From contig JBGTHM010000115.1 in NCBI GenBank assembly GCA_041746255.1, forward strand, positions 64,620 through 128,619: a stretch of 64,000 nucleotides of DNA, given 5' to 3'. Below are positions 42,606 through 55,724 of this stretch, one piece after another. Numbering within the stretch: the stretch's first letter is position 1; each line of letters begins with the position of its first letter. Made by a program: the position numbers and the translations under genes. The DNA comes from Fibrobacteria bacterium. Lineage in GTDB: Bacteria; Fibrobacterota; Fibrobacteria; UBA11236. The notes beneath the pieces were generated by a model. That model made no database searches. It had not been told where the DNA came from and worked only from the letters and a program-made list of their open reading frames with translations.

Positions 42606-43352
42606 CTACCGTCCACGAAACCGAGCGGGCCGGGAAAATTGGGTGACACTTCGCTGCCAAAGATATCGTTCTTCTCGCCGCAGGCATAACCAGACGATAG
42701 GAACCATCAAAACCACATCACGGGTCAACGCGAACCAGGCATCGGCAGGGCCTTGCGCGCCGGAAATATCGAAGCAGCCGCAGGCAATGCCCAATTCCCG
42801 CGCCAAAGCTTGCCACAGCGCGACGATGAACATGATCATGAGCGCTCCGATGAAAAGGGAGTATTCCCGGGAATAACGGGTAAAAATAAGCCCGCCGGCC
42901 ACCACCAACTCCAACGCCGGCATGCCGACCGCAAAGGGATGGACCAGTAATTCCGGGAGTAATTGATATTGGGCCACCGCCATAGCGAACTCAGTGGGAT
43001 TCACCAATTTCGGCCATGCCGCCGCCAGGAACATCACACCCAGTCCGACTCGGAAAAAAGACTCTAAATAGTCGTCCAAGCGCATATACCGCGCTCGAAT
43101 CAGGACGAACCCGAGCAGCAGCGACGCCAGCAACAATCCCACGATGAGGGCGCCATGCCGAACCGTATCTCTCCAGGCCAATTCAATAGCGGACCACAGT
43201 CCCGCCCAAAATCCCGGTGCGGGATAACCCGGAGGCGTTTCCAAAATCTGGGGACTGCCGAACCAAGGCACACCGTTGGGATTAAACAGGTTATTCGTTT
43301 CAGCAATCAAGCCCGCGAGTATCAAGGTTACAATGACGACTCTTTTATTCAT
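42606..43352 (-). CDS. MauE/DoxX family membrane protein
   Basis: FLAAAWPK, PALELVV, IACGCF and TRDVV. Confidence 0.8.
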   Translation of the reverse strand: MNKRVVIVTLILAGLIAETNNLFNPNGVPWFGSPQILETPPGYPAPGFWAGLWSAIELAWRDTVRHGALIVGLLLASLLLGFVLIRARYMRLDDYLESFFRVGLGVMFLAAAWPKLVNPTEFAMAVAQYQLLPELLVHPFAVGMPALELVVAGGLIFTRYSREYSLFIGALMIMFIVALWQALARELGIACGCFDISGAQGPADAWFALTRDVVLMVPIVWLCLRREERYLWQRSVTQFSRPARFRGR

Positions 43353-43427: not shown

Positions 43428-44324
43428 ATGGCCTTTCTGGAAAAAATCCGCAAAAGTATCCCGACTTTGTCCTATGAATTGTTCCCACCCAAAAACCCCA
43501 CGGGCTGGGGTACCTTGTATGCCACGCTATCCGAAATCGCCAAGCAAGCTCCGGACTATATCTCGGTAACCTATGGTGCCGGGGGATCTACCCGAGACAA
43601 AACCGTGGATATGGTCGGTCGCATTCAAAATGAATTGGGTATCGAATCCATGGCCCACCTGACTTGTGTGGGCCATTCCCGCGATGAACTGCAAAATCTG
43701 CTGCAGTCGCTGCAAAAGGTCGGAATCCGCAACGTCCTGGCCCTTCGGGGAGATCCACCAAAAGGTGACACGGCTTTCAAGCCTCATCCCGATGGCTTTG
43801 CCCATGCCAGCGATTTGATTGAATTCATCCGCGAGCAATTCACCTTTAATTTAGGCTGTGCCTATTACCCCGAAAAACACGTCGAAGCGCCTACCCTCGA
43901 AGAAGATATCCTCCATCTCAAATTGAAGCAGGATAGAGGCGCTGACGTAGCCATTAGCCAGCTATTCTTCGATAATGAAAACTTCTACCGGTTCCGCGAC
44001 CTGGCCTATAAGGCCGGAGTGCGAATTCCCCTGGTCGCCGGAATCATGCCGGTACTCGAATTGAAACAGCTGCCTCGCTTTCAACAACTTTCCGGATGCG
44101 TAGTTCCCGAGAAATTGGTTGCCGCGCTGGGTGAAGGTCAAAATGAAGAAATACAGGAGCGGGGCATCGAATACGCCACCCGACAATGCCTCGATTTGCT
44201 TGCCAATGGCATTGCCGGAATCCATCTCTATTGCCTCAACCGTTACCAATCCTCCGTGCGCATAACCGAGAACTTGCGACGGGAAGGTCATTTCCGGGTC
44301 GAGTCCGACTCTCCGGAGAGTTGA
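43428..44324 (+). CDS. metF: 5,10-methylenetetrahydrofolate reductase
   Basis: SYELFPPK, SVTYGAGG, AHLTC, LALRGDPP, SQLFFD and GIHLY. Confidence 0.95.
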   Translation: MAFLEKIRKSIPTLSYELFPPKNPTGWGTLYATLSEIAKQAPDYISVTYGAGGSTRDKTVDMVGRIQNELGIESMAHLTCVGHSRDELQNLLQSLQKVGIRNVLALRGDPPKGDTAFKPHPDGFAHASDLIEFIREQFTFNLGCAYYPEKHVEAPTLEEDILHLKLKQDRGADVAISQLFFDNENFYRFRDLAYKAGVRIPLVAGIMPVLELKQLPRFQQLSGCVVPEKLVAALGEGQNEEIQERGIEYATRQCLDLLANGIAGIHLYCLNRYQSSVRITENLRREGHFRVESDSPES

Positions 44325-44328
44325 TTTC

Positions 44329-45618
44329 GTGAGCCAGGCGAAAGAGCCACAGGCTCCCAATCGCCTTCACGCCTTACTTCAGCGGCTTCGCCGCGAAGGC
44401 GGGGAAATCCTGGAGTTGACCGAATCCAACCCCACCCATGTCGGTTTTACCTACCCCGAAACCGAAATTCTTGCCGCCCTGAGCAGCCCCGAAAGTTTGA
44501 GCTATGCTCCCGAACCCGCCGGACTCCTCGTTGCACGCAAGTCCGTTGCCGAGTACTATGCTGAAATCCGTTCCGACCCTCAAGCGAAACACATGGGAAA
44601 TGCGGAACAAACGACCCAAACCTATCCGCCGGTTCGGCCCGAAAACTTGATCCTCACGTCCGGAACTTCGGAAGCCTATGGTTTTTTATGCAAACTTTTA
44701 TGCAAACCGGGTGATGAGATATTGATCCCCTCGCCATGCTATCCCTTGCTGGATTGCCTGTCCGAACTGGAGCATGTTTGCCTCGTTAAATATCCTTTGG
44801 CCTTTCACCCGGAACAAGCGCGGCCCTGGACCCTGGATTTAAATGCCCTGGAAAATTCCATCTCGACTCTCACTCGAGTACTCGTCGTAGTGAATCCCAA
44901 CAATCCTACCGGGCATTATTTCACCGCTGACGAAGCCCGCGCATTACTAAAAATCGCCGCGCGCCATGACCTTGCCGTCGTGGTGGACGAAGTTTTTCGC
45001 GACTATGCCTTGCTAGGGAAGCCGGAACAGTATTTCGCGGCCGAGTCCACACAGGTTTCTCTGACCCGCCCCCTATTCACTTTGAACGGCTTTTCCAAAA
45101 CCCTGGGTCTGCCACAACTGAAATTGGCATGGATACATATCTCCGGTGAAGAAGCGCTGATCCGTCCCTACCATGAGAGACTGGAATTCATTGCCGATGC
45201 CTACCTCTCGGTCAATTCACCGGTTCAGAACGCCGCCGCCGGGTTATTTCGATTACGGGGCCAATTACAAAACCAGATTCTCTCGCGACTTCGCACAAAC
45301 TTGAAAACCGCCACCGATATGGTCGGCGAATACAGCGCCGTTCAAATTCTACCTCCCGAAGGAGGATGGCAACTCATCCTGCTCTGCGATGTTGCCATGG
45401 ATGATGAGACCCTTTCCCTAATCTTACTGGAAGAATGCCGGATTTTTGTCCATCCCGGCTATTATTTCGATTTGCCACACCCCTGCGGCTTGGTCGTGAG
45501 CCTCCTGTTACCGCCCGAGCGATTTCGCGAGGGTTTGACACGGCTGCTTATGCGAGTTCAAGGTTTAACCGAACCGCCTCAAAACAACTCCCTTCTTCAA
45601 CCGGGAAACGCATCATGA
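44329..45618 (+). CDS. PLP-dependent aminotransferase class I/II
   Basis: LTESNPT, TSGTSEAY, VNPNNPTG, DEVF and FSK-x2-GLPQLKLAW. Confidence 0.88.
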   Translation: MSQAKEPQAPNRLHALLQRLRREGGEILELTESNPTHVGFTYPETEILAALSSPESLSYAPEPAGLLVARKSVAEYYAEIRSDPQAKHMGNAEQTTQTYPPVRPENLILTSGTSEAYGFLCKLLCKPGDEILIPSPCYPLLDCLSELEHVCLVKYPLAFHPEQARPWTLDLNALENSISTLTRVLVVVNPNNPTGHYFTADEARALLKIAARHDLAVVVDEVFRDYALLGKPEQYFAAESTQVSLTRPLFTLNGFSKTLGLPQLKLAWIHISGEEALIRPYHERLEFIADAYLSVNSPVQNAAAGLFRLRGQLQNQILSRLRTNLKTATDMVGEYSAVQILPPEGGWQLILLCDVAMDDETLSLILLEECRIFVHPGYYFDLPHPCGLVVSLLLPPERFREGLTRLLMRVQGLTEPPQNNSLLQPGNAS

Positions 45619-46511
45619 TTTCCACCAACGCTCCATCGAAAAGTACCACCGACATCGGAACCAATCATTCCAACAAAGCCCGGGTAAGGCGCTACTATGC
45701 CGCCGCCACCGAAGATTATCTGAAATACTATGAAGCCGACTGGCATCACCATATGCATTACGGCTTCGAACGTGATTTACCCAAGGGAGGCAATCCCACC
45801 GAGAACCTGGTGCGTTACCTGGCCGACACGGGAGGCATCACCGCGGGCGCCCGGGTGTTGGATGCCGGATGCGGCGTGGGCGGCTCCGCGATTTGGTTGG
45901 CGCAGAACCGAGGCTGCGCAAGCGTGGGCATCACTTTGATGGAACCGCAAGCCCGCCTGGCCCGGGGATTCGCCGAGCGGAAATCTCCTCCGGCCCAGGC
46001 TCGCTTTTCCGCCATGGATTTTACCGCTCCGGCTTTCAAACCCGGGTCTTTCGATTTTGTTTGGGCGGTGGAGAGCTTCGATCATGCCTTCGACAAAGCC
46101 GCCTTTATCGCGGAAATGGCGAAGTTGCTGTCGCCGGGCGGAAGAATCGTCATCGCGGATGGGTTTCGGGCCGACCGCGAATTCACCCCCCGCGAAACCC
46201 GGCAATACTCCCGGTTTCTGGAAGGTTGGGCGGTGCCTCACCTCTGCACCCGGGAAGAAATGCGCGGCTATGCCGCCGAGGCATCGCTGAAAGTGGCCTT
46301 GCACGAGGATATCAGCGCCGACGTGGCGCCGCATGCCTTCGCAATTTATCGCTTTGGATTGTTTTTCGGGCCTTTACGGTTTCTGGGGCATAAACTGGGA
46401 TTGACCAGCCGGGAAAAACTAGGTAACGCCTGGGCTACCTATCATCAGTACACCACTTTTCGTAAAGGGCTGTGGACATATGATGTTTTTGTATTGGAAA
46501 AAGCCGGTTAG
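45615..46511 (+). CDS. Class I SAM methyltransferase (tocopherol/sterol/N-methyltransferase-like)
   Basis: HMHYG, VLDAGCGVGGS, GITL, FDFVWAVES and PGGRIVIAD. ATGA overlap at 45615. Confidence 0.85.
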   Translation: MISTNAPSKSTTDIGTNHSNKARVRRYYAAATEDYLKYYEADWHHHMHYGFERDLPKGGNPTENLVRYLADTGGITAGARVLDAGCGVGGSAIWLAQNRGCASVGITLMEPQARLARGFAERKSPPAQARFSAMDFTAPAFKPGSFDFVWAVESFDHAFDKAAFIAEMAKLLSPGGRIVIADGFRADREFTPRETRQYSRFLEGWAVPHLCTREEMRGYAAEASLKVALHEDISADVAPHAFAIYRFGLFFGPLRFLGHKLGLTSREKLGNAWATYHQYTTFRKGLWTYDVFVLEKAG

Positions 46512-46720: not shown

Positions 46721-49165
46721 ATGCCATTCAGTGAAAATTCACCCATTCTGGTTCTTGGAGGCGACGGGTATTTAGGGTGGCCCCTTTCCCTGCATCTTGC
46801 CTTGGAACATCCTTCCAGGCCGGTTATCATGGCCGATAATCATCTCAGACGCAGACTCGTGAAGGAAACGGGCGGCGAAAGCCTGCTTCCCATTTTATCT
46901 CCATCCGGGCGCATAAAGGCCGCGCGGGATATCCACTCCGTCGACAACCTTGAGTTCATCCATCTCGACGTAAACTCTCCGGTCCTGGAAGCGCTCATCC
47001 GGGAACGGAAACCGGGAACGGTCTACCACCTGGCCCAACAATGTTCCGCGCCTTATTCCATGCGCGGAAGCCGGGAAGCGCTGTTCACCCTCCGGAACAA
47101 TGAGGAAGGTAACATGCGTGTATTATGGGCCGTGCGGCGTCATGTTCCGGAGGCGCATATCGTCAAGCTGGGGACCTTCGGAGAGTACGCGAAGTCGGGC
47201 TTGGATATCGCCGAAGGATATTTCCGTCCCGAATACCGGGGACGCATCGCGGAACGGCCTGTGCCTTATCCCAGGGAGGCGGACGACTTCTACCATGCCT
47301 CCAAAATCAACGACAGCAATTATATCTCCGTGGCCTGCAGAAAGTGGGGGCTGCGCGTCTCCGATATCATGCAATCGACGGTTTTCGGTTCGTGGACGGA
47401 GAAAACCGGGGCCGCGCATGAGCTCTTTACGCGCCTCGACTATGACGAATGTTTCGGCACCGTGGTGAACCGGTTTCTCGCCCAGGTGGTACGGGGGAAA
47501 TCCCTGAGCGTCTATGGAACCGGCCACCAACGCACGGGCCTGATGGCCCTTTCCGATTCCATCCAATCTTTGGTTTCCCTATGCGACAAAGCGCCGTCGG
47601 TCGGCACCCACCGGGTCATCAATCATGTAACGGAAGACTCCTTTTCGGTAATCGAACTCGCGGAAACGATGCGCGGCATTGCCATGGAGGAAGGCTTTTT
47701 GGTCACAATTGAAAGAGGCGCCCACGACCCAAGAGGAGAGACAGCCCCCGCGAAGATGGAATATCGCATTGAAAGACGGTATGTTTCGGAGAGCTTCGAG
47801 TCCGCCGGAATGAGAGAGGTTATTTCCAAAACCTTTCGGATGGTTCTGCCTTACAGACACCGCGTAAATGCGGCTCTTTTCGCCCCCAAGACCCTATGGA
47901 ACGGTCATTCCCCGGTTTTTGAAAAGTCGGAATCGTCCCCGCATGAATTCCCGGATGCAAACTTTCGCCTGCGCCATTTTCCCTATGGCCGCATCAACTT
48001 GAATCCCGGAACCTTGGGTTCCCCATCGTTGGATACCCTTGAAGCCATGGGGAGATTTCATGAGGATGAGCGTTTGGGGCATCCGCTAGGGCAGTACCAG
48101 CATGGGCGCGAGGTTTTGGACCGGTGTTTATCCCTTATTCCCGTGCTATGGAAAACGAATTCCCATTTGGCGACCGTTTCGGCAAGCGCCACCCAATTCA
48201 CCAACCTGTTGGCGCTTTCCATGGCACGCTCCTTCCCGAACCGTTCCAGACCGATACGCATCGTGACCACGCCCCACGAACATCAAGGTGGTATCAGCGC
48301 ATTTGAAGCCCTGTCCGACTTCGAAGTTCTTTACCTGTCCGCCCTGGAAATGGCGGACAATGAGACCTTCGTGGATTTCCTTCGCAAACACCGTCCCGAT
48401 GCGGGTTTCTATTCCCATATCGCCTATGATTCGGGTTGGCGGTTTCCCGTTGAGAGCTGGGCCTCAAGCATGAAGGCTATTTTACCCGACTCCCTGGTTA
48501 TTCTTGATCTTTGTCAGTCGCTGGGATTGTTGGATCCGCCTTTCGAATATGCCGACGTCCTGTTTACCAGTTCCCATAAATGGCTGTTCGGACCAAAGGG
48601 AGCGGGTATACTCTGGACCAACGAGCGTTTCCGAAGGAAAATAGGGGCGTTGCAATGGTCGGGAGAATCGTTGTCGTTTCAACCCGGCGAATCGGGCTTC
48701 GGCCCCTCGGGCGGGATGGACTTCTCCATTTTCTCCGGACTGGAAGCCACGCTGCGTCTTCATCAATTCGTGGGAAACAAAACCATATTTGCAAGAAGTT
48801 CGGCCCTTTCCGCCTATTTCCGAAAAAATCTGCGCGACATACTCGAACATGCCGGCATTACCCATGAATTCATGGACTCCCCGAAAGGCTTTCCCATCGC
48901 CTCAGCCGTTTTATCGGTCGATTTCGTGGATTTGGATCCCTACCCCGTCTATATCCACCTGGAGGAAAACGGGGTGCATGTGAAATGCATCAAGGGAAAA
49001 CAGATAGCCGGAGCGACCCGGAATCTGCTTCGTTTCGGGTTCCCCTACTATGAAGACGAAAAACGGTTGGATACGGTTTTGGCTTGTATGGAAGCCTATC
49101 TTTCCTCCTGCCGGGAACCAATCCTTGCACCGAACCGGCATCCGCATTTGGCCAGGGAGAATTGA
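46721..49165 (+). CDS. sqdB: Fusion of UDP-sulfoquinovose synthase-like SDR (aa ~1-393) and class V PLP C-S lyase/desulfurase-like domain (aa ~415-800)
   Basis: SqdB/SQD1 motifs GGDGYLGW, SAPYSM, VKLGTFGEY, FYHASK and RLDYDECFGTVVNRF...VYGTG. Class V motifs NLNPGTLG, HEHQGG, DLCQSLG and SSHKWLFGPKG (K620). One continuous frame. Confidence 0.88.
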   Translation: MPFSENSPILVLGGDGYLGWPLSLHLALEHPSRPVIMADNHLRRRLVKETGGESLLPILSPSGRIKAARDIHSVDNLEFIHLDVNSPVLEALIRERKPGTVYHLAQQCSAPYSMRGSREALFTLRNNEEGNMRVLWAVRRHVPEAHIVKLGTFGEYAKSGLDIAEGYFRPEYRGRIAERPVPYPREADDFYHASKINDSNYISVACRKWGLRVSDIMQSTVFGSWTEKTGAAHELFTRLDYDECFGTVVNRFLAQVVRGKSLSVYGTGHQRTGLMALSDSIQSLVSLCDKAPSVGTHRVINHVTEDSFSVIELAETMRGIAMEEGFLVTIERGAHDPRGETAPAKMEYRIERRYVSESFESAGMREVISKTFRMVLPYRHRVNAALFAPKTLWNGHSPVFEKSESSPHEFPDANFRLRHFPYGRINLNPGTLGSPSLDTLEAMGRFHEDERLGHPLGQYQHGREVLDRCLSLIPVLWKTNSHLATVSASATQFTNLLALSMARSFPNRSRPIRIVTTPHEHQGGISAFEALSDFEVLYLSALEMADNETFVDFLRKHRPDAGFYSHIAYDSGWRFPVESWASSMKAILPDSLVILDLCQSLGLLDPPFEYADVLFTSSHKWLFGPKGAGILWTNERFRRKIGALQWSGESLSFQPGESGFGPSGGMDFSIFSGLEATLRLHQFVGNKTIFARSSALSAYFRKNLRDILEHAGITHEFMDSPKGFPIASAVLSVDFVDLDPYPVYIHLEENGVHVKCIKGKQIAGATRNLLRFGFPYYEDEKRLDTVLACMEAYLSSCREPILAPNRHPHLAREN

Positions 49166-49169
49166 ATCC

Positions 49170-49739
49170 ATGTGGGAATCGCTCATCAATGCCTGTCGGC
49201 GTGTCATTCCGCCCCTCGGACCTTATCCTGATTTCCAACAGGTGGCCGATGCGATGAACCTGCTTACCCCTGTGGTTTCCAACTACCGGGTGGAAGGCGA
49301 GGGCATCCCCTATGGCCGGTACCTGCTTTTCCAAGACTCCGATGATCTTTTCAACGTGCAGGTGGATGTCTTTTCCAAAGGCTATACCGGCGCCATCCAT
49401 TGCCATGAAACCTGGGGTTGCTTCTGGGTGCTCAGGGGTAACCTTCATGTTTCCGATTGGATACCCGAGAAGGACGGCTATGTCCGTATACGAGCATCGA
49501 CATTGGGAACCGGAAGCGGTCAATGCTTCTGCCCCCCATCGCCGGATTGGCATAAAACCGCTACGCCCCTAGAAGGGGATCAGGTGGTGAGTCTGCATAT
49601 TTACGGATCCGGCTATAACCTCGACAGGGGAATCTACCTGGACGACTCGAAAATGCCCCGTACCGGCTTACGCAGCCCATTCAAGGATCTCGCCCTGGTT
49701 ACCTCCCACATGCGAACGGTAGCAGGGCCTTCTGCGTAA
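49170..49739 (+). CDS. Cysteine dioxygenase-family thiol dioxygenase (cupin)
   Basis: YGRYLL (Arg-type), IHCH plus WH forming a 3-His triad, and SLHIY. GGGAG RBS; starts 4 nt after the fusion-gene stop. Confidence 0.85.
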   Translation: MWESLINACRRVIPPLGPYPDFQQVADAMNLLTPVVSNYRVEGEGIPYGRYLLFQDSDDLFNVQVDVFSKGYTGAIHCHETWGCFWVLRGNLHVSDWIPEKDGYVRIRASTLGTGSGQCFCPPSPDWHKTATPLEGDQVVSLHIYGSGYNLDRGIYLDDSKMPRTGLRSPFKDLALVTSHMRTVAGPSA

Positions 49740-51276
49740 ACCACGTCCGCATTCCCAACCGGAAAGCCTCGAGAACACCGGAAAGGTAGCGCGGGGAGCG
49801 CTGCTCTATTTTACGGGCTTCGGGGGCAAGCTGGCGGGACCCCTTTTCCTGATTATCGCCTCCCGCTTTTATGGACCCGATCAACTGGGAGCTTTTTTCG
49901 GGGCCTGGGCATGTTTACAAGTCGCGATGAAGATCTCATCCGGCGGACTGTGCGAGGGCACGACGCTCTTTGTTCCCCGCCATTTTGAAGAAGGTAGAAG
50001 CGGCATCGTGATTCCCGGCGCAGTGTATGGAGCTCTTTCCACGGCATTTTATGGCGGCATGCTGGTTTCCTTGACCTTCGTGGGTTTGGGATACGCAGGG
50101 CTGGCATACCTGGATGGCTATCACTCAAACTTGCTTTCGCCCGATTTGCGCGCTTCCCTGAGCATATTGCTTCCGATTATCGTATTGGGTTTCCTTGTCC
50201 AATATTCCCTTTCGGCGCTCAAAGGCATTGTCGTATTCAAATACGACGTCTGGATCAACAGCTATGCCAGGGAATTCCTTCCCCTGGCACTGGCGTTGAT
50301 TCTGCTGGCGGGTCCGGAGTGGGGTATGACCCTGGCATGGATTCATCTGGTAACCTATACGGTACTGGCTCTTTCGTCTCTTATCGCAATGTCCCGTCAT
50401 TTCAGTTGGAGAGGAATATTGGTTTGGAAAGGATGGGACAAACGGTTCCTGGCCTTTTGCCTGCCCCTGGGGGCCAACGATTTGCTGCTTTTCCTGGTTC
50501 AGGAGCTCGACATGCTCATGCTCGTCATTCTCGGAGCCGTGGAAGGTTTCGAACTCGCCTTTTACGGCGTGGCGGCGAGTATCGCTTTCGGATTCCGCAT
50601 GTTGCGGCTGAATTTCATGAAAGTATTCCAGCCCTTGGCATCGCGATTGACGGCCCAAGGCGACATGCGGGAGCTGGAGCATGTATTCCATACCACTTGG
50701 CGCTGGAGCCTTTATGCAATCCTGCCTTTCGCGGGAGTTCTGCTCCTGGCTCCGGAGACCCTGCTGGCGATCTACCACCCCGATTACGCCTCCTACGCGT
50801 CCTGCCTGCTGCTCTTGGCCGTAGGTCCGCTGGTGAACGGAATTTTCGGATTGAATACGGCCCTACTGCTGGCTTCCCAAAGAACCGGCCTGCATTTGGC
50901 CAACAATCTGGTCACGGTGGTCGTCAATGCCGGGCTGAACCTTGCCCTGATTCCGAGGTTCGGCGTTTACGGCGCCGCGGCGGCCACCGCCACGTCCATG
51001 GTTTGTGTGCAGGCTCTGACCGCCTTGCAAGTTCGCCGGTTGCGCATGCCGCTCTTTTCCCTGCGTGCGGCGGCAGGTCCCCTGTCGGCCTTTGGCGCGG
51101 CCCTTCTTGTATTCCTGCCAATGCGAATCCACCTCGCGCCCGGGGATTGGGAACAAGGGTTGTCGGCAGCAGGGTTCCTGGTGGTTTTCGCCGTCATAGC
51201 CCGTTATCGAAATGCACCGGAAGCAACTCCGGCTTCGCGACCGGGTCTTGCCATAAAAGAGAGGGTGAGCGAATGA
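49732..51276 (+). CDS. Wzx/MOP-superfamily oligosaccharide flippase
   Basis: Polytopic membrane protein with VARGA...ASRFYGPDQLG, LAFYGVA and LNLALIPRFGVYGAAAAT. The frame is open from 49723; the first ATG is 49927, but flippase-like sequence begins earlier, so CTG 49732 is proposed. Confidence 0.82.
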   Translation: MRKPRPHSQPESLENTGKVARGALLYFTGFGGKLAGPLFLIIASRFYGPDQLGAFFGAWACLQVAMKISSGGLCEGTTLFVPRHFEEGRSGIVIPGAVYGALSTAFYGGMLVSLTFVGLGYAGLAYLDGYHSNLLSPDLRASLSILLPIIVLGFLVQYSLSALKGIVVFKYDVWINSYAREFLPLALALILLAGPEWGMTLAWIHLVTYTVLALSSLIAMSRHFSWRGILVWKGWDKRFLAFCLPLGANDLLLFLVQELDMLMLVILGAVEGFELAFYGVAASIAFGFRMLRLNFMKVFQPLASRLTAQGDMRELEHVFHTTWRWSLYAILPFAGVLLLAPETLLAIYHPDYASYASCLLLLAVGPLVNGIFGLNTALLLASQRTGLHLANNLVTVVVNAGLNLALIPRFGVYGAAAATATSMVCVQALTALQVRRLRMPLFSLRAAAGPLSAFGAALLVFLPMRIHLAPGDWEQGLSAAGFLVVFAVIARYRNAPEATPASRPGLAIKERVSE

Positions 51277-52251: not shown

Positions 52252-53124
52252 TCAGCCCCGCACCCCGTTCACATAGGCCGCGGTGATGGCGTCGCGGGGC
52301 GCTTCGAAGATCTGCGCCGTTTCTCCCTGCTCTATCAGGCTTCCGCAACCCTCTCGCATCCAGAACACCATCACCTCGTCGGCGATGCGGCGGGCCTGGG
52401 CCAGGTTATGGGTGACGATGACGACGGTATAGCGCTCCTTGAGGCCGGAAATCATATCTTCCACCACGCCGCCGGCAATCGGATCCAGCGCGCTGCAAGG
52501 CTCGTCCAGCAACAGCACCTCGGGTTTGAGAGACAAGGCGCGGGCGATACACAAGCGTTGCTGCTGCCCGCCGGAGAGATTGAGCGCGGAAGCTCCCAAC
52601 CTGTCCTTCACTTCGTTCCACAGCCCGACGGAGCGCAGCGAGGCTTCGGTGATTTCCTCGATGTCCATCCGTTCCGAAATCCCGTTTTCCTTGAGTGGGA
52701 TTTCGAAATTGCGGCGGATGGAAAAGGGAAATGGATTGGGTTTCTGGAATATCATGCCTACGCGACGGCGCAAGGAAACCACGTCCGTGGAATTGTCCAG
52801 AACGTCGTCGCTCCCTACCCGAATATGGCCGGTAACGCGACAGCCGGAAATGAGATCGGTAAGGCGGTTGAAGCACATGAGATAGCTGGACTTGCCGCAT
52901 CCCGAAGGACCCACCAATGCCGTGATGCGGCCTTTACCCACCATCGCGGACACGGCTTGGAACGCGGGCTTGTCTCCATACCATAGGGAGAGGTTTGTCG
53001 AGCATAAGGCCGACGGGGTATCCGAGGGATGGCCCGCTGACGCGACGGCGTGGCAGGGTGTCTCCAGGAAATCCTCCGGATAAGGACCCCCGTTCCGGTG
53101 GGAAGGGTGGGAATCAGTTATCAT
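52252..53124 (-). CDS. pstB: Phosphate ABC transporter ATP-binding protein
   Basis: GPSGCGKS, GMIFQKPNPF, LSGGQQQRLCIAR, DEPCSALDP and VTHNLAQA. Confidence 0.93.
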   Translation of the reverse strand: MITDSHPSHRNGGPYPEDFLETPCHAVASAGHPSDTPSALCSTNLSLWYGDKPAFQAVSAMVGKGRITALVGPSGCGKSSYLMCFNRLTDLISGCRVTGHIRVGSDDVLDNSTDVVSLRRRVGMIFQKPNPFPFSIRRNFEIPLKENGISERMDIEEITEASLRSVGLWNEVKDRLGASALNLSGGQQQRLCIARALSLKPEVLLLDEPCSALDPIAGGVVEDMISGLKERYTVVIVTHNLAQARRIADEVMVFWMREGCGSLIEQGETAQIFEAPRDAITAAYVNGVRG

Positions 53125-54017
53125 GCGCGTTTCCTTCCGGTGAAGCGTTTTCCCATGGCCATCGCGGTGATGCCGTTGATTATCAACAGCAGACCGACCA
53201 GTACCAGCGCCGAAGCATAAGCGTTGGTATCGCCTCCGGGAACATTCATGGATAGATCGAAGATATGTATTGAAAGCGATCGGCCCGAATCGAACAACGA
53301 GCCGGGCATGCGGTCCACATAGCCGCTGGTGAAGATGAGCGCGGCGGTTTCGGCCAGCGCGCGGCCCACGCCCAAGGCCAACCCCACCGTAATGCCGGGA
53401 AGCGCGAGCGGAAGCAGCACACGGAACAGCATGCCCGCGCGCGACAGCCCGAGGGCGGCGGCTCCCATGCGGAATTCCGACGGAACGGCCCGGAATTCCT
53501 CTTCTACGACGCGTATCAGAATGGGAAGCACCATGCAGGCCAAGGTCAGGCCGCCGGAAAGTATGGAAAAGCCCATGCCGAAAAGTTTGCTGAACAGCGC
53601 GTTGCCGAAAAGCCCGAAAACGATGGAAGGCATGGCGGCCAACACTTCAAGGCTGCGTCGCAACAATTGCGCGAGATTGGACTCTTCGCGCGTGAACCCG
53701 GCGAGATAAGCCGCCGCCGCAACTCCCAGCGGAACGGCCGTCGCCATGCATACCGATAGGATAAGCAAGGTGGAAACCCAGATGGAGCGGATGCCCCCTT
53801 CCCTACCCGCATTGACCGGATCGGCAAGCAGAAATTCCCAGGACAGCCCTCCCAGCCCTTGTCGCAGCAGGTCAAAAAGAATCCATAGGAAAAGGCCGGT
53901 TACGATTACGGCGGAGGCCCGGATTAAAAAACCGGCCAGGACGGACGACACCCTGCCAGATGTGCTCATCATGCGCGGCGGACGCAGGCGCTTCACAACC
54001 GGAATCGACTCAGGCAA
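53121..54017 (-). CDS. pstA: Phosphate ABC transporter permease
   Basis: GREGGI, PSIVFGLFG and GRALAETAAL. Start uncertain (TTG 54017 or ATG 53972). Confidence 0.9.
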   Translation of the reverse strand: MPESIPVVKRLRPPRMMSTSGRVSSVLAGFLIRASAVIVTGLFLWILFDLLRQGLGGLSWEFLLADPVNAGREGGIRSIWVSTLLILSVCMATAVPLGVAAAAYLAGFTREESNLAQLLRRSLEVLAAMPSIVFGLFGNALFSKLFGMGFSILSGGLTLACMVLPILIRVVEEEFRAVPSEFRMGAAALGLSRAGMLFRVLLPLALPGITVGLALGVGRALAETAALIFTSGYVDRMPGSLFDSGRSLSIHIFDLSMNVPGGDTNAYASALVLVGLLLIINGITAMAMGKRFTGRKRA

Positions 54018-54888
54018 AAGCGGGCCCCTTTCCGAAGCGATGGGAGGCGGCCACAAGGGCTATCGTAAGCAACGCCAACAGCAATCCGCCCATGAATAGC
54101 GCGGAGCGGTGGCCGTCCATGGCATAGGCCATTTCCAGGGCGATGTTGGCGGTTAACGTACGGACCGGATCGAAAAATCCCGTGGGAACCTGCACCACAT
54201 TGCCGGCCACCATGAGCACGGCCATGGTTTCACCCAGCGCCCTGCCGGCGCCGAGGATGATTCCAGCGATGATGCCCGGACGCGCGGAGGGAAGCACGAT
54301 GCGCCGGATAAGGCCCCAGCGCGTCATTCCCAACGAGGCGCCTGCCAGAATATGATCCCGGGGAACATTGGCGATACCGGAGTCGGCCAGGAGAGCGATG
54401 GTGGGAAGGATCATCAGCGCCAGAATAAGGATCCCGGCCAGCAGGCTCTGTCCGGGGGGCTGAATGCGACCCAGCAGCGGTACCAGCACCACCAACCCCC
54501 ACAAACCGTAGACCACCGAAGGGATTCCCGCCAGCAATTCGACCAGCCTGCGATAGGCCACGGCCATGGGCGCCGGTGCGTAATAACGGCAGAACAGCGC
54601 GGACAACACGCCCAACGGGGCCGCCAAAATCACGGCGCCCGTTGCGACAAACAAGGTGCCTGCCAGCATGGGCAACAGATTGAAGCGGTCTTGCAGCGGG
54701 TGCCATGAAGGGTCGGTGAAAAAACGGAAAGGGCCGATAGCGGCCAGTATGGGGAGGGATTCCATCGCGATGAAGGCCACGAGCATAAATGCCAGCGAGC
54801 CCGCCAGGACCCCCGCCCCACGCAGAGCCCAGGCCAGCACACGATCAATCCGTGATGGGAAGGAGGTGGAAGTTTTCAAGGAGGTCAT
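54010..54888 (-). CDS. pstC: Phosphate ABC transporter permease
   Basis: ELLAGIPSVVYGLWG, GRALGETMAVLMVAGN and TLTANIA. Confidence 0.92.
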   Translation of the reverse strand: MTSLKTSTSFPSRIDRVLAWALRGAGVLAGSLAFMLVAFIAMESLPILAAIGPFRFFTDPSWHPLQDRFNLLPMLAGTLFVATGAVILAAPLGVLSALFCRYYAPAPMAVAYRRLVELLAGIPSVVYGLWGLVVLVPLLGRIQPPGQSLLAGILILALMILPTIALLADSGIANVPRDHILAGASLGMTRWGLIRRIVLPSARPGIIAGIILGAGRALGETMAVLMVAGNVVQVPTGFFDPVRTLTANIALEMAYAMDGHRSALFMGGLLLALLTIALVAASHRFGKGPAFA

Positions 54889-55675
54889 GCACTTTCTCCG
54901 ATTGGGCGAATTCCAGGAATTCCTTAAGCAAACCCTGGGGCGACGATTTCACCACGAGATTCAAGGTGCGGGAGAGGGGAAAGGAACCGTCGCCGACACC
55001 GGTAAGAGTGGGCACAATACCGTTTAGAGCCAAACTCCTGATGGCCGCCTCACGGCCCATCGCGTATTCCGCCGCGCCGATGGACACATACCCCACCGCT
55101 CCCGGAATTCCCGCCACCGATTTGATACCCTGTTCATTGTCCCCGATAATCACATGGGCCTTCACGTCCGTGGAGGCCAATTTGAAATGGGACAGGAACA
55201 ACTCCAGCGTGGAACGGCCCTCCGCCTTGTTGATAACGGTTATCGGCAGGTCGGGACCGCCAAGTTCGCTCCAATTCGTAACGGCTCCGGAGAACGCGGC
55301 TTTCACCTGCGCGTCCGTCAAATCGCCCGTGGGGTTGTCGCGATGGGTGATGAGGGTAATGCCGTCCCGGGCGAGGGCGTAGGGAATGAGATCGCCTTCA
55401 TTCTCCTTCAAGTCGCGTGAAACCATGCCGATATCGCTCAACCCTTGCCGGCAATCGGCCATGCCGCGCGACGAGCCCCCCGTTTGCACGTCGATGCGCA
55501 CTCCCGGATGCAGCGATTCGAAGCGACGCGCGATTTCCCCGACCACCGGAGCCACCGTGCTGGAGCCGGTAATAACCAATTTCCCGGGTGATTCTCCGTT
55601 ACGCTCTCCCGATTGCGAACAACCCGCGGCCATCGAGAGGATCGCCAGGGTGAATGCCCACTGTAACCTTTTCAT
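54845..55675 (-). CDS. pstS: Phosphate-binding lipoprotein
   Basis: Lipobox AAGC, ITGSSTV, GGSSRG, DIGMVSR and ARDG. AAGGA RBS before ATG 55675. Confidence 0.9.
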   Translation of the reverse strand: MKRLQWAFTLAILSMAAGCSQSGERNGESPGKLVITGSSTVAPVVGEIARRFESLHPGVRIDVQTGGSSRGMADCRQGLSDIGMVSRDLKENEGDLIPYALARDGITLITHRDNPTGDLTDAQVKAAFSGAVTNWSELGGPDLPITVINKAEGRSTLELFLSHFKLASTDVKAHVIIGDNEQGIKSVAGIPGAVGYVSIGAAEYAMGREAAIRSLALNGIVPTLTGVGDGSFPLSRTLNLVVKSSPQGLLKEFLEFAQSEKVHDLLENFHLLPITD

Positions 55676-55702
55676 CGTAGTCCTTTTCATCAATCGCATA
55701 AT

Positions 55703-55724
55703 CATATGTAGATATCTTTATATG
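55703..55724. promoter_or_regulatory. ArsR/SmtB-type operator-like inverted repeat upstream of pstS
   Basis: CATATGTAGATATCTTTATATG matches its own reverse complement at 18 of 22 positions; AT-rich, between the ArsR-family gene and pstS. Confidence 0.65.

Follow-up and report, generated by a model that had tools for sequence, protein, structure and literature searches.

A putative SQD1-type dehydrogenase fused to a class-V PLP domain carries cysteine in place of the active-site arginine: a candidate for cysteine-derived sulfur transfer to a nucleotide sugar

Among the closest described relatives of the system considered here are the uridine diphosphate (UDP)-sulfoquinovose synthases SQD1, SqdB and Agl3. 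According to PMC4388408, the known enzymes use free sulfite, the delivery of sulfur to them in vivo is described as still unknown, and the Agl3 variants R101A, H95A, M145A, Y182A and K186A are all inactive. The present analysis concerns a gene for an 814-residue fusion protein in a 64,000-nucleotide stretch of DNA (the window) from a Fibrobacteria bacterium (GenBank assembly GCA_041746255.1, contig JBGTHM010000115.1, positions 64,620 to 128,619, forward strand). In this protein a short-chain dehydrogenase/reductase (SDR) domain of the SQD1 type is joined to a class-V pyridoxal 5′-phosphate (PLP) domain, and the position of Arg101 is occupied by cysteine (Cys108). The substitution was first noticed in a reading of the bare letters (the original prediction), from which, with Arg101 of SQD1 taken to position sulfite, a sulfur donor other than free sulfite was proposed. 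We put at about even the chance that the fusion is a two-domain enzyme that makes a UDP-6-deoxy-6-sulfur-substituted glucose with sulfur taken from a cysteine-derived amino acid through the PLP domain. In a full-text literature search, with most subscription journals outside its reach, neither the fusion nor a cysteine-dependent route to sulfoquinovose nor a natural 6-thio- or 6-sulfinoquinovose was found described.

The fusion was divided by Pfam into an NAD-dependent epimerase/dehydratase domain (residues 9–294) and a class-V aminotransferase domain (residues 489–784). Residues 9–327 were aligned with the Arabidopsis SQD1 chain 1qrr_A at an E value of 1.2e-63 by using phmmer against PDB chains (1i24 similar, about 1e-64), and the top Foldseek match of the SDR half was also 1qrr (E 1.3e-32; template-modelling (TM) score normalised to the target, 0.86). 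Besides the SQD1 fold, the domain has the Thr/Ser, Tyr and Lys of the SDR triad with the neighbouring His, here T152, Y191, H192 and K195; these residues, and K620 of the PLP domain, are all present in the translation, as had been claimed. Because every residue required in Agl3 except the Arg is retained, and with it the full oxidation and dehydration machinery, the SDR domain should form UDP-4-keto-glucose-5,6-ene. The NCBIfam model UDPsulfquin_syn (NF041015) matched residues 9–393 with 318.5 bits, below its curated cut-off of 575; when this model was run against the whole genome, the top score was 321.1 bits and no gene reached the cut-off.

The phmmer alignment to 1qrr_A is gap-free across the motif around residue 108, which confirms that R101 of SQD1 maps onto C108, and codon 108 was read as TGT in the open reading frame (ORF), as originally stated. 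Homologues of the fusion were collected from 5.8 billion proteins at E≤1e-5 (180 full-length matches), and residues were counted in the best 120 (39–56 % identical), which are listed from Spongiibacter, Zhongshania, Litorivivens, Chitinophagaceae, Cytophagaceae, a Pseudobdellovibrio metagenome-assembled genome (MAG; elsewhere labelled Bdellovibrio MAG) and the jakobid Andalucia. Position 108 is Cys in 106 of these, Gly in seven, Ser in four, Ala in two and a gap in one; Arg does not occur. The cysteine recurs in a second genome of the same order as well and is thus real rather than a sequencing error. Among public sequencing runs the stretch is present in a single one, which comes from a hot-spring metagenome, probably gave rise to the assembly and is hence hardly an independent read set; RNA runs were absent from the public runs listed as holding the stretch.

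Among the 115 fused proteins of at least 780 residues (query included), Cys is found in 104, Gly in seven, Ser in two and Ala in two. The 11 proteins without Cys keep H103, Q106, Y191, H192, K195, the lysine of S-x-H-K and R771, and T/S152, Y191, H192 and K195 are conserved throughout the family. By these counts Cys108 is a family trait, neither a sequencing error nor indispensable. The suggestion that C108 relays sulfur from the lyase domain is not supported by the comparison. Five of the six best matches of the window protein have Gly108, and systems in which the two domains are separate genes (described below) have Ala108; Cys108 is therefore not an obligatory relay. Since the replacement pattern is Cys/Ala/Gly/Ser/Pro, never a large or charged residue, position 108 would have to be small rather than nucleophilic: its apparent constraint is to be small and not Arg, with no obligatory role for the thiol in sulfur transfer.

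Loss of the Arg is not confined to the fusion. In the 120 best unfused matches to residues 1–400 (42–67 % identical), position 108 is Ala in 62, Pro in 22, Cys in 21, Arg in ten, Gly in three and Ser in one; 16 of the 21 Cys proteins are full-length (388–394 residues, ending at the end of the SDR domain) and five are fragments. In 80 species-representative genome loci with SQD1-like genes, Pro was found in 36, Arg in 28, Ala in 14 and Cys in two. In all, 110 of the 120 closest unfused proteins and 52 of the 80 species-level loci lack the Arg, and the expected co-occurrence of Arg loss with fusion holds only loosely. The substitution is common in stand-alone SqdB, an outcome that had been named beforehand as speaking against the original prediction; this applies to Arg loss and also to Cys itself, which is present in 16 full-length unfused proteins.

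A tree of 269 SDR domains was calculated with FastTree and midpoint-rooted; every second fused protein was sampled. The fused proteins form one clade (55 Cys, two Gly, one Ser) that includes two stray unfused rows, with four unfused Ala-type proteins as its sister group (support 0.886). The next group comprises 69 unfused proteins, with Ala in 47, Cys in 15, Pro in three, Gly in three and Ser in one, and the Arg-type branch lies further out. By this topology, Cys108 arose from an Ala/Pro background on two or more separate occasions, in the fused clade and again within an unfused subclade.

When class-V ORFs were sought within 7 kb of the SDR gene with a hidden Markov model (HMM) of the PLP partner, one was found at all six Cys-type loci and at both close Ala-type loci (retrieved through the PLP gene and hence biased), at one of 36 Pro-type loci, at none of the 14 distant Ala-type loci and at none of the 28 Arg-type loci. 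The Pro-type exception (L006:5243-7403, a Gemmatimonadaceae MAG) has, as its PLP gene, a distant member of class V, 27 % identical to the domain in the window, directly upstream of the SQD1-like gene; it may be an independent pairing of both enzyme types. A metagenome scan with the PLP domain added three fused genes (L086, L087 and L092), all with Cys108, and three split loci (L089 and L090, which give identical matches, and L091), in which the SDR protein (53–55 % identical, Ala108), the PLP enzyme (37 %) and a cupin (43–49 %) are encoded by separate genes in the order found in the window. The small residue at position 108 together with an obligatory PLP partner therefore points to a donor other than free sulfite.

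Further positions of the SDR domain change along with residue 108. Arg133 is present in 133 of 133 sequences of the PLP-linked clade, as against Asn in 22 of 24 Arg-type sequences; position 106 is Gln in 131 of the 133, as against His (12) or Glu (11) in the Arg type, and position 131 is Asn in 131 of the 133. Arg108 and Arg133 occur together in none of 24 sequences, and a small residue (Cys, Ala, Gly or Ser) at position 108 is accompanied by Arg133 in 136 of 141 sequences; as the sequences are related, these counts do not amount to a statistical test. R133 was considered as a relocated substitute for R101. The co-variation is real, but residue 133 lies deep in helix 117–141 of the AlphaFold2 (AF2) model, and compensation is not claimed. 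From the general architecture of SDR enzymes, residue 133 in this helix presumably faces away from the substrate.

The PLP half was assigned to class V by Aminotran_5 (PF00266; 48 bits, gathering cut-off 21.5) with S617, H619 and K620 invariant; the class-V Asp, Gln, His and Arg are likewise invariant. Its best NCBIfam families, EgtE (TIGR04343; 47.1 bits, cut-off 400) and SufS (TIGR01979; 30.2 bits, cut-off 475.1), both fall short of their cut-offs. Foldseek returned cysteine desulfurases and EgtE (E about 1e-19 to 1e-18), a language-model search placed the domain nearest to EgtE and hercynylcysteine sulfoxide lyase clusters (0.97), and hhalign against the SufS of the same genome gave a probability of 95.8. 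A cysteine in K-C-I-K (Cys756) is also present in the PLP proteins of both split systems; it is replaced by Leu, Tyr or Phe in four of the 115 fused proteins and does not co-vary with residue 108. It stands 15 residues before Arg771, the spacing between catalytic Cys and Arg in the SufS of the genome, yet hhalign and MAFFT place the SufS Cys opposite other residues. A persulfide mechanism at the PLP domain is therefore possible but would not be general.

The cupin encoded next to the fusion gave no Pfam match at E≤1, CDO_I (PF05995) included, and a search of the genome with PF05995 was also empty. Only three homologues were returned from the word-indexed set of 5.8 billion proteins. With phmmer the 3-mercaptopropionate dioxygenases 6xb9 (1.6e-8) and 3uss and the cysteine dioxygenase 2b5h (1.6e-4) were matched; the AF2 model has a predicted local distance difference test (pLDDT) score of 93.4, and the Foldseek matches listed (40, within ranks 1–50) are all thiol dioxygenases, with R60, C93, H155 and Y157 variants named in their PDB titles. 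R50, H77, H79, H128, S141, H143 and Y145 are invariant in seven of seven homologues, and the last six of them account for the three-His iron site and the Ser-His-Tyr triad. Opposite R50 stands Gln62 in the Pseudomonas enzyme 3uss and, as judged from the offsets of the matched stretches (48 in the query, 58 in the chain), residue 60 in rat cysteine dioxygenase (CDO). We take Arg at this position to mark enzymes that bind the carboxylate of free L-cysteine, and Gln to mark the mercaptopropionate type. Because the Arg is present, oxidation of free cysteine is a more probable function of the cupin than oxidation of a thiosugar, the role that had been proposed for it and that is not favoured here.

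A mechanism can be put forward from these data. The SDR domain would form UDP-4-keto-glucose-5,6-ene by oxidation and dehydration. The small residue at position 108 could mean that the site for the free sulfite dianion was lost and that room was made for a bulkier or enzyme-delivered sulfur donor, which the PLP domain would provide from a cysteine-derived amino acid. Here the Arg-type thiol dioxygenase, which is translationally coupled to the fusion, would most likely convert L-cysteine to cysteine sulfinate, and the product would be a sugar of the sulfoquinovose type with its sulfur as sulfinate or sulfonate; where the dioxygenase is lacking, the fusion would start from cysteine and give a 6-thio sugar. 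The PLP domain might cleave first, as a desulfinase or desulfurase, with nascent sulfite or persulfide adding to the glucosene; or cysteine or cysteine sulfinate might add first and the PLP domain then act as a β-lyase, like EgtE, removing the alanyl part by β-elimination. Both orders fit the data alike. The soluble family 2 glycosyltransferase (GT2) and the MATE/Wzx-like protein encoded downstream would attach and export the sugar. That this amounts to a new route for C–S bonds in nucleotide sugars, in which the glucosene is captured by cysteine-derived sulfur through PLP to give UDP-6-thioquinovose where the dioxygenase is missing and a 6-sulfino or 6-sulfo sugar where it is present, is advanced tentatively, as the less probable outcome.

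Several observations weigh against a sulfur supply from cysteine. SQD1-like proteins without the Arg are common, and most have no PLP partner. Pro or Ala replaces the Arg in 50 of the 80 species-level loci, and hardly any of these has a PLP gene nearby; it may therefore be that the Arg is no sulfite site and that enzymes without it continue to use sulfite. Genes of the 3′-phosphoadenosine-5′-phosphosulfate (PAPS) reductase and sulfite reductase families are present in the genome, so free sulfite should exist in the cell. With this cupin or CDO_I as the query (one search each, MAGs of unstated completeness included), no dioxygenase was found in three of four other genomes; two of the dioxygenase-negative genomes (Zhongshania guokunii and a Bdellovibrio MAG; G041, G042) carry the fusion, and none was found within 10 kb in the fused loci L086, L087 and L092. 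As there are fusion carriers in which no dioxygenase was found, cysteine sulfinate cannot be the general donor. The repeated origin of Cys108 hints at some advantage of the thiol. The AF2 model of the fusion (32 homologues; mean pLDDT 84, predicted TM score 0.54) is confident for the individual domains and uncertain in the inter-domain geometry, and for every family member the chemistry is inferred from sequence.

Some of these points suit an ordinary UDP-sulfoquinovose synthase that uses free sulfite without needing the Arg, the PLP domain and dioxygenase either boosting local sulfite or being unrelated to the reaction. All glucosene-forming residues are retained, the genome presumably makes sulfite, most of the fold family consists of Pro- and Ala-type proteins that lack a PLP partner, some of which may be working sulfoquinovose synthases, and the adjoining pstSCAB operon would suit a phosphate-sparing anionic sugar. 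This explanation is nevertheless thought unlikely: according to PMC4388408 Agl3 R101A is inactive, the NCBIfam equivalog score is about half of the cut-off, and the PLP partner, fused or adjacent, is strictly kept despite about 40 % sequence divergence and in many phyla, as would be expected of a coupled step more than of a loose supply role. It is held quite unlikely that no sulfur sugar is made and that the 4-keto or 5,6-ene intermediate is transaminated or modified with an amino acid by the PLP domain while the cupin acts elsewhere. A dehydratase and a PLP enzyme are the standard pair of amino-sugar synthesis, the chemistry of class-V enzymes is varied (PvdN and isopenicillin-N epimerase were also matched), and most fused genes have no dioxygenase nearby. 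Against this, the PLP domain stays below the Pfam threshold for the sugar-aminotransferase family and matches Aminotran_5 only, its nearest structures and families are all C–S-cleaving enzymes, the SDR domain is of the SQD1 type, which is specialised for C6 chemistry, and it is a thiol dioxygenase that turns up again in three independent arrangements.

Very unlikely, in our judgement, is a catalytic relay in which Cys108 takes persulfide sulfur from a desulfurase-type PLP domain to C6 of the glucosene. The Cys majority in the fused clade (104 of 115), the independent origin of Cys in the unfused subclade and the near-invariance of Cys756 (111 of 115) at a SufS-like spacing from the conserved Arg would be expected of it. 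Gly, Ser or Ala is, however, found at position 108 in the 11 otherwise intact fused proteins, five of the six closest homologues among them; the split systems keep the K-C-I-K cysteine with Ala108, so that the two Cys do not co-vary; and Cys756, itself lost in four proteins, is not placed on the catalytic Cys of SufS by hhalign. A sulfur supply from cysteine through the PLP domain is thus preferred to these alternatives. The relay through Cys108 is unlikely, and the broader idea of a donor other than sulfite, the part of the original prediction that stands as plausible, is worth testing: the Arg is gone in all fused homologues, a PLP enzyme is joined or adjacent, and a thiol dioxygenase lies in the module.

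In the window the fusion belongs to a module of four genes (fusion, cupin, MATE/MurJ-like protein and soluble GT2), whose coordinates are collected below. Specific to the system is this module, which is conserved between the window and one genome of the same order (G026, 77 % complete). There the fusion (63 % identical, Cys108) is split across two contigs that join inside the gene; it is preceded by the cupin (48 % identical, divergent strand) and followed directly by a MATE-like protein (40 %) and then a GT2 (50 %). A few genes past that cupin lie an MbnB/TglH/ChrH-family gene for modification of ribosomally synthesised and post-translationally modified peptides (RiPPs) and a DUF2063 gene (L174:730-2485), which are probably unrelated. 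The fused gene is rare: it was found in one of 40 relatives, in two of 296 genomes of the phylum (that of the window included) and in two of 301 genomes of the order of Zhongshania, and is absent from a genome of the same genus. L001 and L087 likewise have GT2 genes close to the fusion; in Zhongshania and L092 it lies between a sigma-54 activator and a nitroreductase, with no glycosyltransferase nearby. In two related, Spongiibacteraceae-like loci without dioxygenase, a nitroreductase-family flavoprotein is encoded directly after the fused gene (L002:12599-13264, L092:11510-12175), and in another a flavin mononucleotide (FMN) protein resembling pyridoxamine 5′-phosphate oxidase (PNPOx) follows on the opposite strand (L086:5016-5435); these neighbours might be redox partners. 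Neighbour clustering of 86 loci grouped mainly the housekeeping synteny of close relatives and gave little functional information.

Upstream of the fusion, at a distance of 210 bases, genes for a methylenetetrahydrofolate reductase (MTHFR), a class I/II aminotransferase and an S-adenosylmethionine (SAM)-dependent methyltransferase are found (43428-46511, + strand); the aminotransferase gives weak matches to the C–S lyase PatB and to GntC. They were considered as pathway members, for instance in S-methylation, and were set aside, having no counterpart beside the module of G026. A gene for a MauE/DoxX-family membrane protein (42606-43352, − strand) lies upstream of the MTHFR gene. At the other end, a pstB-pstA-pstC-pstS-like phosphate ATP-binding cassette (ABC) operon (ABC_tran, two BPD_transp_1, PBP_like_2; 52252-55705, − strand) converges on the end of the module; by analogy with classical sulfolipids it could tie expression of the module to phosphate limitation.

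Coordinates of the fusion gene, its domains and marked codons, and the other genes of the module (positions in the window)
Feature	Position	Strand	Basis or remark
SDR–PLP fusion gene, bifunctional, 814 aa	46721..49165	+	ORF and translation; Pfam Epimerase and Aminotran_5
SDR domain, SQD1 fold, residues 1–400	46721..47920	+	phmmer to 1qrr/1i24; Foldseek 1qrr
Motif HLAQQCSAPYSM, residues 103–114	47027..47062	+	ORF translation and phmmer alignment
Codon 108, TGT (Cys), at the SQD1/Agl3 Arg101 position	47042..47044	+	Alignment and column counts
Codon 133, Arg; invariant in PLP-linked clade, Asn in Arg-type relatives	47117..47119	+	Column counts
Class-V PLP domain, residues ~431–814, cysteine desulfurase/C–S lyase-like	48011..49165	+	PF00266, NCBIfam, Foldseek, hhalign
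Codon 620, PLP-binding Lys of S-x-H-K	48578..48580	+	Invariant in 32/32; kept in all 8 rows of an alignment including SufS
Codon 756, Cys of K-C-I-K, 15 residues before conserved Arg771	48986..48988	+	Cys in 111/115 fused proteins
Cupin, 189 aa, Arg-type thiol dioxygenase (cysteine/mercaptopropionate dioxygenase, CDO/MDO, fold)	49170..49739	+	Starts 4 bases after fusion stop codon; phmmer, AF2, Foldseek
MATE/MurJ/Wzx-like multi-pass membrane protein, putative flippase	49927..51276	+	Weak Pfam MatE and MurJ, many hydrophobic segments; true start may lie upstream
Soluble GT2 glycosyltransferase, 269 aa	51273..52082	+	PF00535, 1.6e-26; no hydrophobic segment

The wider SQD1-like family gave some further observations. 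The Pro- and Ala-type loci (among L003-L080) are mostly from Actinomycetota, Chloroflexota, Thaumarchaeota and Acidobacteriota. In 13 of the 28 Arg-type loci (e.g., L039:11692-12867; mostly Acidobacteriaceae, related genomes) the SqdB-like gene lies near a GT21/GT2 gene, a PMT_2 family protein and an asparagine synthase. Among P0267-P0361 many SQD1-like proteins, 700–1160 residues in length, give two or three separate matches to the SDR query, pointing to large insertions or other fusions.

The Arg is present in only 28 of the 80 species-level SQD1-like loci, and the annotations of the Arg-less loci are probably over-confident. If the proposal is true, annotations as "UDP-sulfoquinovose synthase" would be unsafe and a cysteine-dependent route to 6-sulfur sugars would be defined; Spongiibacteraceae, Bdellovibrio, many Bacteroidota and the jakobid Andalucia, which lack the dioxygenase, would be predicted makers of UDP-6-thioquinovose, and the cell envelopes of widespread marine and soil bacteria would contain 6-thio and 6-sulfino sugars as hitherto unknown building blocks.

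The locus can be set against four known systems. With the thiol dioxygenases the cupin shares the fold, the three-His iron site, the Ser-His-Tyr triad and the Arg at CDO residue 60 (Gln in mercaptopropionate enzymes); it differs in being only about 20 % identical to the solved structures and in a crosslink-position Cys that the window protein has but that is not conserved. The PLP domain resembles SufS, CsdA, IscS and NifS in its class-V fold, its PLP-binding residues and the Cys 15 residues before the Arg for the substrate carboxylate, and differs in its low identity (about 17–21 %), in a loop before this Cys that is four residues shorter (by manual alignment; automated ones place the Cys elsewhere), in the loss of the Cys in four of 115 family members and in the lack of a SufE/SufU sulfur acceptor in the locus. 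Enzymes of the SufS/CsdA/IscS/NifS type also desulfinate cysteine sulfinate. To the UDP-sulfoquinovose synthases the SDR domain is related by its fold, by about 34–44 % identity, by the motif around position 108 and by the T/S-Y-K triad with His192; unlike them, it has Cys at the Arg101 position (Gly, Ala or Ser in orthologues), Gln106 instead of Glu or His, Arg133 instead of Asn, a C-terminal class-V PLP domain and a score of 318.5 bits, below the family cut-off of 575. Alike in its proposed logic is EgtE/Egt2 of ergothioneine biosynthesis, the best NCBIfam family of the PLP domain (Foldseek 8irk, E 1.2e-18, TM 0.80), where cysteine sulfur is likewise placed on a carbon electrophile before the C–S bond of the cysteine is cut; LmbF of lincomycin biosynthesis is another C–S lyase of this kind, acting at the end of a thiol or thione pathway. 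Here, with 47 bits against the EgtE cut-off of 400, the substrate would be a nucleotide sugar and not a histidine betaine, and the C–S bond would be formed by conjugate addition in the SDR site rather than by an iron-dependent sulfoxide synthase.

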